17,644 nucleotides of DNA from a virus (taxonomy: Duplodnaviria > Heunggongvirae > Uroviricota > Caudoviricetes): the IMG/VR virus record IMGVR_UViG_2737471835_000010, positions 1-17,644 of that record; one strand, given 5' to 3'. The notes below the pieces were generated by a model that worked only from the letters and a program-made list of their open reading frames with translations, ran no database searches and had not been told where the DNA came from. The position numbers and the translations under genes are program-made. This document shows, piece by piece, positions 8,694 through 9,624 of the stretch; the first letter of the stretch is position 1; each line of letters begins with the position of its first letter.

Positions 8694-9624
8694 ATTAACC
8701 GGCTATGTATGGGATGGTTGCGCTGCGTCAGGCATGAAATTATCCAGCGTGGCAATTATGGCCCGCCTGGCTGATTTCAGTAATGACGAAGGTGTGTGCT
8801 GGCCATCAATTGAAACCATTGCCCGTCAGATTGGCGCGGGGATGAGTACCGTCAGAACGGCTATCGCACGGCTGGAAGCAGAAGGCTGGTTAACGCGTAA
8901 GGCGCGTCGCCAGGGTAACCGCAATGCGTCGAATGTTTATCAGCTTAACGTTGCGAAGCTTCAGGCAGCGGCATTTTCTCAACTGTCAGATTCTGACCCG
9001 TCAAAATCTGACGCATCAAAATCTGACCCGTCAAAATTTGATGCGTCGAAATCTGGCAAAAAAGCGGGTTTTCACCCGTCAGAATCTGGCGGGGATCCGT
9101 CAGTAAAATCAAAACATGATCCGTCAGATAAAAAAACTTCTCGTCCGGACGCTTCGCAACCGGACACGCAGACGGCTGAACAGGAGTTTTTAACTCGCCA
9201 TCCTGATGCGGTTGTATTCAGCCCTAAAAAGCGCCAGTGGGGAACGCAGGATGATTTGACCTGCGCACAGTGGCTCTGGAAAAAAATCATCGCCCTGTAC
9301 GAGCAGGCCGCCGAATGTGACGGCGAGGTGGTTCGTCCCAAAGAACCGAACTGGACAGCCTGGGCAAACGAAATTCGCCTGATGTGTGTGCAGGATGGTC
9401 GTACTCACAAACAAATCTGCGAGATGTACAGCCGCGTCAGTCGCGATCCGTTCTGGTGCCGTAACGTGCTCAGCCCGTCGAAGCTGCGGGAAAAATGGGA
9501 TGGGCTTTCCCTGCGCTTATCGCCGTCCGTCAGCACGTACACCGAAAAACGCGAAGACCCGTACTTCAAATCCAGTTACGACAACGTGGACTACAGCCAG
9601 ATCCCGGCAGGATTCAGGGGGTGA
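8683..9624 (+). CDS. Replication initiation protein (O-like; N-terminal winged-helix, internal iteron-encoded linker)
   Basis: N-terminal domain (KLSSVAIMARLADFSNDEGVCWPSIETIARQIGAGMSTVRTAIARLEAEGWL) resembles phage replication-initiator HTH domains. The central region is encoded by tandem DNA repeats. GAGG lies 6 nt upstream of the ATG. Confidence 0.65.
   Translation: MSTKLTGYVWDGCAASGMKLSSVAIMARLADFSNDEGVCWPSIETIARQIGAGMSTVRTAIARLEAEGWLTRKARRQGNRNASNVYQLNVAKLQAAAFSQLSDSDPSKSDASKSDPSKFDASKSGKKAGFHPSESGGDPSVKSKHDPSDKKTSRPDASQPDTQTAEQEFLTRHPDAVVFSPKKRQWGTQDDLTCAQWLWKKIIALYEQAAECDGEVVRPKEPNWTAWANEIRLMCVQDGRTHKQICEMYSRVSRDPFWCRNVLSPSKLREKWDGLSLRLSPSVSTYTEKREDPYFKSSYDNVDYSQIPAGFRG
8984..9140. 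repeat. Iteron-like tandem repeats (about 15-bp period, core CCGTCAAAATCTGAC) followed by an A-rich tract; putative origin of replication
   Basis: At least four consecutive about 15-bp units (GACCCGTCAAAATCT, GACGCATCAAAATCT, GACCCGTCAAAATTT, GATGCGTCGAAATCT), plus three degenerate CCGTCAG-containing copies, then GATAAAAAAACTTC. This is analogous to the lambda origin lying inside gene O. Confidence 0.55.

Follow-up and report, generated by a model that had tools for sequence, protein, structure and literature searches.

A candidate lambda-type replication origin inside the initiator gene of an SfIV-type temperate prophage, and a DnaT-like tail that may recruit the host helicase loader

Where does a temperate phage with a single recognisable replication gene start its replication, and how does it obtain a helicase? 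The question is raised by a 17,644-nucleotide stretch of Caudoviricetes DNA (IMG/VR record IMGVR_UViG_2737471835_000010, positions 1 to 17,644; the whole stretch is the window below), which covers the early region of a lambdoid prophage. Its initiator gene, at 8683-9624 on the + strand, encodes 313 amino acids according to the open reading frame (ORF) list and translation, is of the yfdO type and matches phrog_391, 'replication initiation O-like' (E 5.9e-135). The initial annotation had placed tandem repeats of about 15 bp and an A-rich tract at 8984-9140, inside this gene, and had suggested an origin there as in lambda, with recruitment of the helicase left to the C-terminal part of the initiator itself. 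Judged from sequence features, 8985-9141 is very probably where a temperate prophage of the SfIV/SfII/CPS-53 type, common in E. coli and Shigella, starts its replication, an origin lying inside the linker-coding part of its own initiator gene. The explanation that we favour as a whole, a lambda-type origin at which a DnaT-mimicking tail recruits the host DnaB-DnaC complex, has in our estimate a probability of roughly 0.6.

Repeats and A-rich tract are both present as reported. Tandem Repeats Finder detects a period of 15 at 8992-9055 (4.3 copies, 81% matches), and a repeat search returns six in-register copies within 8971-9093. Allowing at most two mismatches to GTCARAATCTGAC, the 17.6-kb window holds six sites, at 8985, 9000, 9015, 9030, 9045 and 9078 (spacings 15, 15, 15, 15 and 33), and no site in its remainder. 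At three mismatches 18 sites are found against 9.3 expected, little above chance; the signal therefore lies in the clustering of the good sites, six packed into 106 bp, and not in their total number. Every iteron is a 13-bp near-palindrome, for example GTCAGA-T-TCTGAC. Five of them, with the consensus GTCARAATCTGAC, keep the 15-bp register at 8985-9057, and the sixth, GTCAGAATCTGGC, lies 33 bp past the fifth at 9078-9090 and is conserved at the DNA level across genera. Next come two GATC boxes that each include an iteron half-site, GATCCGTCAGTAA at 9094-9106 and GATCCGTCAG at 9118-9127, and then the A-rich tract GATAAAAAAACTTC at 9127-9140. By a nearest-neighbour stability scan the least stable 40-mer of the initiator gene is 9102-9141 (72% A+T, among the least stable 5.4% of the window's 40-mers), a candidate DNA-unwinding region. 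The DnaA box TTWTNCACA has no match in the window, where about two would be expected by chance. GATC is not enriched overall, and its conservation is confined to the two origin copies, at 9094-9097 and 9118-9121. The window also has a type II methyltransferase (14027-15079), and in relatives (L006-L082) Dam-type or C5 methyltransferase genes very often lie directly 3' of the initiator; phage methylation may be linked to origin control.

Far from being absent in homologous initiator genes, a periodic array occupies the same gene position in all 80 homologous loci sampled, one per bacterial species. The core TCAAAATCTGAC recurs in 64 distinct genes from Escherichia, Pantoea, Providencia, Proteus, Yersinia, Rahnella and others. 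Initiators with other N-terminal domain types have other arrays: the MSSKLHGLVWEG type goes with TCAAATATTGA, locus L019 with TTCAGATTCTGAA and locus L054 with TCAC-N4-GTGA, and the arrays of L017, L065, L076 and L081 have a period of 21-23. The array sequence thus co-varies with the type of N-terminal domain.

Codon usage in the repeats tells the same DNA apart from the peptide that it encodes. Repeat units were defined by peptide only (SDxSK), which gave 165 units; these are related by descent and duplication and are not independent trials. Of the 165 units, 148 use TCT for the first serine, a codon that makes up 12.8% of serine codons elsewhere in these genes; 152 use TCA for the second (position 4), against 22.5% elsewhere; and all 165 use AAA for lysine, against 67%. 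Since the synonymous sites of the repeats stay nearly fixed while the homologous proteins have diverged to 55-70% identity, it is the DNA, not the peptide, that is under selection. The 70 bp 3' of the array, both GATC boxes included, are likewise conserved base for base across genera. Fifty-three of the 64 distinct genes of this iteron type have the two boxes, and in 49 of those 53 a run of at least four A comes after box 2.

Prophages 97-99% identical to the window contain 5, 6, 7 or 8 iterons, always differing by whole 15-bp (5-codon) steps. These copies come from a scan of viral contigs by C-domain alignment, which returned 97-99% identical copies alone and was used for copy-number variation. 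Among these contigs (L088-L167, 97-99% identical to the window C-domain) substitutions cluster in the codon across the 2-bp spacer between 13-mers (P/A/T/Q). The array also moves with its reader: about 45 fetched loci match the window protein over residues 1 to ~161-169 alone, at 67-84% identity, and run on into another C-domain, Phg_2220_C. Conversely, at least 14 viral contigs carry the window C-domain at 97-99% identity with an N-terminal part that appears to differ: their reading frames, of 333 or 353 amino acids, did not show the N-terminal motif of the window type. The sharing of N-domain and array with other C-domains, and the converse, indicates that DNA reader and origin travel as one module, which is the expectation for an initiator with a cognate origin.

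The protein fits this division. An AlphaFold2 model has a winged helix at residues 1-98, a disordered segment at 103-160, a confident helical domain at 162-278 and then a disordered tail. The iterons encode SDSDPSKSDASKSDPSKFDASKS, residues 102-124 of the 313-residue ORF; the repetitive linker noticed initially is thus real and lies in the predicted disordered segment, whose coding sequence wholly contains the iterons and the A-rich stretch. The N-terminal winged-helix DNA-binding domain (8683-8976, + strand) matches HTH_36 at residues 23-70 (E 4.2e-11) and is the presumed reader of the iterons. Foldseek with the full model matched MarR-like winged helices, all from this domain. For the helical C-terminal domain (9166-9516, + strand), tblastn gives 38.4% identity to lambda O over residues 166-277 (E 1e-18) and 35.1% to phi80 gp15. 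An alignment of such C-domains (A3) has 24 invariant columns, and block-mean predicted local distance difference test (pLDDT) values in the domain are mostly 86-96, with one block at 73. Sequence searches of Pfam, NCBIfam and PDB with this domain gave no match; by the tblastn alignment it is a true lambda O homologue. The label 'O-like' therefore holds for the C-domain and fails for the N-domain, which is HTH_36 and not Phage_rep_O. Together, the equivalent position of the iterons, the array in 80 of 80 homologues and the near-fixed synonymous sites argue for the lambda-like origin inside the initiator gene that had been suggested.

If this is the origin, what loads the helicase? The window offers no candidate of a known kind. 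A tblastn search of the window with E. coli DnaB, DnaC and two lambda-P-family proteins gave no match, Pfam and PHROG scans of its ORFs found no helicase, loader or primase family, and none of its ORFs matches PF06992. As first noted, the initiator is followed by PerC-like and LexA-like genes. The PerC-like gene (yfdN; 9621-10115, + strand; Pfam PerC, E 7.1e-9, and RefSeq) occupies the slot of P in lambda, its start overlapping the initiator stop codon (GTGA); after it come a LexA-DNA-binding-domain protein (10115-10441, + strand) and RusA (10438-10827, + strand), neither of them a loader. The same holds in a phage known to grow. The initiator gene is 99.5% identical in nucleotide sequence to that of gp41 of Shigella phage SfIV and 98.5% to its SfII counterpart, and the complete 54-gene SfIV genome has no helicase, loader or primase annotated. 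SfIV forms plaques and lysogenises (PMC3851460), and because the same gene serves this plaque-forming phage, the reading of 8985-9141 as an origin gains support. The phages mEp460 and ST64B share the layout of a lone initiator followed by a PerC-like gene, a methylase or PAPS reductase, RusA, and KilA-N or a regulator; the LexA-domain gene of that layout is found in mEp460 and not in ST64B.

The suggestion that the initiator's own C-terminal part recruits the helicase fits these data, and the informative element appears to be its extreme C-terminus. The disordered tail (residues 283-313; 9529-9621, + strand) ends in SQIPAGFRG, encoded at 9595-9621. BLASTP aligns these nine residues with SQIPPGFRG of E. 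coli DnaT, 8 of 9 identical and at the exact C-termini of both proteins; the DnaT sequence was verified by PDB 9ZBT chain D. The last ~33 residues of the window protein are shared with mEp460 and ST64B at 79% identity, and other relatives have tails much nearer DnaT, for example VNHISEPDTEIPPGFRG and ERDINAISRPDTTIPPGFRG. The BLASTP match is significant over the last nine residues alone, and the N-terminal oligomerisation domain and acidic PriB-binding linker of DnaT were not found in the initiator. In DnaT orthologues, Buchnera included, the motif PDxxIPxGFRG is conserved. Phage tails match the 3' end of dnaT at 35-43 of 63 nucleotides (55-68%), the likeness being kept at protein level only, and we rejected a recent capture of host dnaT DNA as their source on this identity. 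A search with the DnaT C-terminal domain returned true DnaT proteins only and did not reach DopC, a protein discussed below.

The kind of tail goes with the kind of loader. We classed the tails of the distinct initiators from 80 genomes and scored loader genes nearby. With a DnaT-like tail (51 distinct initiators) there was no lambda P, one DnaC homologue (L076) and no DnaB; with a WNSPEAWENTL or NTDWI tail (8 initiators) lambda P (PF06992) was directly downstream in all eight, with no DnaC and no DnaB. A long extension, 'WNxIW...AA', ends 18 initiators, with none of the three genes, and a single initiator with another tail (L070) has a DnaC homologue and neither P nor DnaB. In L070 the tail of the initiator (3777-4679) has an IPEGF motif and, after it, ...GGTDDDFI, similar to the acidic tip of SSB; the next gene encodes a DnaC homologue with 45% identity to the E. 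coli protein. The long extension (L013, L016, L018, L020-L022, L034, L052, L053, L062, L066, L069, L072-L074, L077 and L082) is about 60 residues, with no P, DnaC or DnaB gene within ~3.5 kb, and may be a third route to the helicase. Even among P-bearing loci, WNSPEAWENTL tails occur with the P type of L009 and NTDWI tails with that of L010 (L009, L011, L012, L014, L054, L059 and L067 compared with L010), and these P proteins are only ~40% identical, which suggests that tail and P co-vary.

The association also holds when approached from the loader. Among 80 viral contigs encoding a DnaC homologue, the upstream gene was readable in 79, and in all 79 the gene 5' of the DnaC homologue ends in RDxNxISxPDxx[IV]PxGFRG; in E. 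coli, dnaT lies directly 5' of dnaC. A corresponding lambda-P scan found NTDWIYGV[DE]L tails in 79 of 79 readable contigs, all of them near-identical lambda-type genes. Across viral contigs and genome loci the DnaT-like tail is carried by five architectures: HTH_36 with the lambda-O-like domain, HTH_36 with Phg_2220_C, an N-domain without assigned function joined to a true DnaT domain (PF17948), a Phage_rep_O N-domain with another C-domain, and a family without Pfam match. By these co-occurrences the tail is a portable module, and its presence predicts the kind of loader. The copied DnaT ending and this tail-loader association are the new points of the present analysis: the literature searched gave no description of the association or of a tail-DnaC link, nor of 'initiator-solo' modules or SfV orf39.

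These observations can be assembled into a mechanism. Dimers of the initiator N-terminal winged helix would bind the six 13-bp near-palindromic iterons, and the complex would strain and open the adjacent A-rich stretch flanked by the two GATC boxes. The C-terminal part of the initiator would then bring the helicase, with the disordered DnaT-like tail in place of the P-binding tail of lambda O. In lambda, the C-terminal part of O binds P, so by analogy a DnaT-like tail should bind a DnaC-type loader or the DnaC-DnaB complex. As genes for P, DnaC and DnaB are all absent from the phage, we infer that its tail would dock on host DnaB-DnaC, with DnaC the likeliest contact, and phages without a DnaC of their own would use that of the host. 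We hold the tail-to-DnaC step, argued by analogy, to be a little short of an even chance. More tentative again is a general form of the proposal, in which the last ~10-20 residues of DnaT (RDxNxxSxPDxxIPxGFRG) might be a portable docking peptide for DnaC or DnaB-DnaC, which many Enterobacterales temperate phages would have grafted onto unrelated initiators, so that host DnaC, or its phage-borne copy, would load the helicase in place of a P-type loader.

Several points weigh against this explanation. At the origin, 72% A+T is moderate in absolute terms for the A-rich stretch, and the published description of SfIV says nothing of an origin (PMC3851460). In the window protein the match to DnaT spans nine residues with a pairwise E of 0.009, and the upstream RDxN part is missing. 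The 18 initiators with the long extension likewise lack any loader gene nearby, with another kind of tail. The shared phylogeny of the compared loci makes the counts look more independent than they are, and the 79 DnaC contigs amount to two DnaC clades. In the cryogenic electron microscopy (cryo-EM) structure of the preprimosome the DnaT C-terminal domain docks on PriA, and it is the DnaT N-domain that is proposed to recruit DnaB-DnaC (PMC13377028). Removing DnaT residues 154-179 weakens binding to single-stranded DNA (ssDNA) merely ~2-fold (PMC4132743), and DopC has the DnaT C-terminal motif yet pairs with a lambda-P-like protein (PMC5509034).

The tail could instead stabilise the unwound ssDNA, as has been proposed for DnaT, with the lambda-O-like domain itself contacting host DnaB or DnaC. 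The DnaT C-domain forms a filament on ssDNA (PMC13377028). The three-helix ssDNA-binding C-terminal domain of DnaT (PF17948) was not detected in the initiator. We consider this division of labour unlikely.

A second alternative keeps the same origin and makes PriA the partner of the DnaT-like tail or of the C-terminal part as a whole, so that PriA-PriB-DnaT-DnaC would load DnaB at the opened origin; the primosome assembly sites of phiX174 or pBR322 are the precedent. In the preprimosome structure a conserved hydrophobic interface joins the DnaT C-domain directly to PriA (PMC13377028), the tail has hydrophobic residues that are conserved (I, P, F), and a loader-less phage needs some host pathway. 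This route would leave unexplained, however, why the tail is so tightly coupled to phage-borne DnaC homologues (79 of 79) and why the P-binding tail has been replaced in otherwise homologous C-domains. An initiator that finds and opens its own origin also has less need of the structure-specific targeting of PriA, and the text of PMC13377028 is silent on whether residues 155-179 sit in the interface. We regard recruitment through PriA as quite improbable.

A third alternative supposes an unrecognised phage loader, either the PerC-like product (9621-10115) or the 112-residue protein encoded upstream (8335-8673). The overlap of the PerC-like start with the initiator stop suggests coupled translation, lambda P is absent from all 24 loci in which a PerC-like gene comes after the initiator, and no function is known for the first ~95 residues of the PerC-like protein or for the upstream protein. 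Many loader-less relatives, however, have a methyltransferase and no PerC-like gene after the initiator (L027, L035, L038 and L041), the PerC family consists of small transcription activators, and nothing in the window matches a P-loop or helicase-binding family; we consider such a loader very unlikely.

Least probable is that the repeats are a low-complexity coding repeat or autoregulatory operators and that replication starts elsewhere: the segment does encode a disordered Ser/Asp/Lys-rich linker, RefSeq names the product only 'helix-turn-helix domain-containing protein', and plasmid iterons also serve in autoregulation, but nearly fixed synonymous codons and palindromic units exclude a peptide-only version, the layout is that of lambda (array, A-rich stretch, linker position, homologous C-domain), and P lies directly downstream in relatives with the same N-domain and array, such as L059.

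The surroundings of the gene are those of a lambdoid early region. In order, the window carries integrase, excisionase, YfdR- and YfdQ-like genes, an S24 repressor, and Cro-like and CII-like genes; then the 112-residue protein, the initiator, the PerC-like, LexA-DNA-binding-domain-like, RusA, KilA-N and DUF968/HNH genes; and finally antiterminator Q, the methyltransferase and lysis genes. Immediately 5' of the initiator, at 8335-8693, two annotations compete: SfIV gp40 corresponds to 8335-8673, with a phrog_1170 match (E 2.9e-70), and RefSeq has a DUF4222 ORF at 8514-8693 in a different frame. RefSeq neighbours of the initiator are yfdN, yfdP and yfdQ. On the - strand lie a YfdR-like HD-domain phosphatase (4119-4685) and YfdQ/DUF2303 (4783-5607). 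According to PMC4776307, K-12 YfdR binds DnaA, and initiation at oriC is inhibited when yfdQRST is overexpressed; by blocking host initiation, a phage without a loader might release DnaB-DnaC for its own use. Positions 1-2252, adjoining the integrase, form a very A+T-rich block that contains the window's least stable 40-mers. Its three ORFs (1-1053, cut by the window edge, 1028-1465 and 1455-2252) have no Pfam function, PHROG function or PADLOC match, and the block is cargo of unknown function at the prophage end. An Rfam scan of the window found no RNA family. In two E. coli chromosomes (L004 and L005) the initiator copy is missing its first ~79 codons, with the full iteron array and the C-domain retained; such copies probably belong to decayed prophages, comparable to the yfdO remnant of K-12 CPS-53.

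The origin is an ordinary, very common and unstudied member of the lambda kind, and its loader-less, DnaT-mimicking arrangement is a variant of it. The initiator gene is matched in 2,724 of 5,426 complete E. coli genomes, at 80% or more gene coverage in 1,576 of these, and the literature searched held no description of this origin. The variant illustrates a temperate phage that replicates with one replication gene, and its initiator splits into three exchangeable modules: a DNA reader with its origin, a core domain and a tail that would specify the partner. These phages are predicted to depend, unlike lambda, on host DnaC. For replication restart in E. coli, the tail-loader association also yields a testable hypothesis about the DnaT segment that engages DnaB-DnaC. 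The docking-peptide reading, if true, would name the element that recruits DnaB-DnaC to the restart preprimosome, a step whose mechanism the authors of the 2026 structural paper call unknown (PMC13377028).

Among known systems, lambda ori with O and P is the closest in plan. In both, the initiator gene contains the origin, within the linker that separates a DNA-binding N-domain from a C-domain, with dyad-symmetric iterons beside an A+T-rich stretch; the four lambda iterons are at nucleotides 349-435 of gene O and those here at 303-408, and both genes come after cro- and cII-like genes at the corresponding place of the right early operon. The differences concern the parts. The N-domain of lambda O is Phage_rep_O (PF04492), whereas here it is HTH_36, with no Phage_rep_O match; lambda has four iterons of 19-20 bp at 20-24 bp, against six of 13 bp at 15-bp spacing; and lambda has a P gene and the tail NTDWIYGVDL, where this prophage has no P and a DnaT-like tail. 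Weigel and Seitz (FEMS Microbiol Rev, 2006) reportedly distinguished 'initiator-solo' phage replication modules, such as those of SfV, ST64B and mEp460, and the present locus resembles these: one O-like initiator gene contains the repeats, and neither a loader nor a helicase gene lies next to it. Iteron plasmids (pSC101 RepA, R6K pi, RK2 TrfA) also combine a winged-helix initiator with tandem iterons beside an A+T-rich region and use host DnaB-DnaC, but they have DnaA boxes and need DnaA, where the window has no such box, and their iterons lie outside the initiator reading frame.

For the tail, the nearest systems are chromosomal. DopC-DopE of Cellvibrionales and Oceanospirillales (Brezellec et al. 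2017, PMC5509034) likewise joins an HTH_36 N-domain to the DnaT C-terminal motif; unlike the phage initiator, DopC is a domesticated chromosomal gene with a lambda-P-like partner, has no iterons and is not an origin. Brezellec et al. have already drawn O-P, DopC-DopE and DnaT-DnaC side by side (PMC5509034). With E. coli DnaT-DnaC the phage protein shares the extreme C-terminus, and in related phages the gene bearing the tail precedes a DnaC homologue just as dnaT precedes dnaC; the phage initiator, however, would be targeted by sequence-specific iterons and not by PriA.

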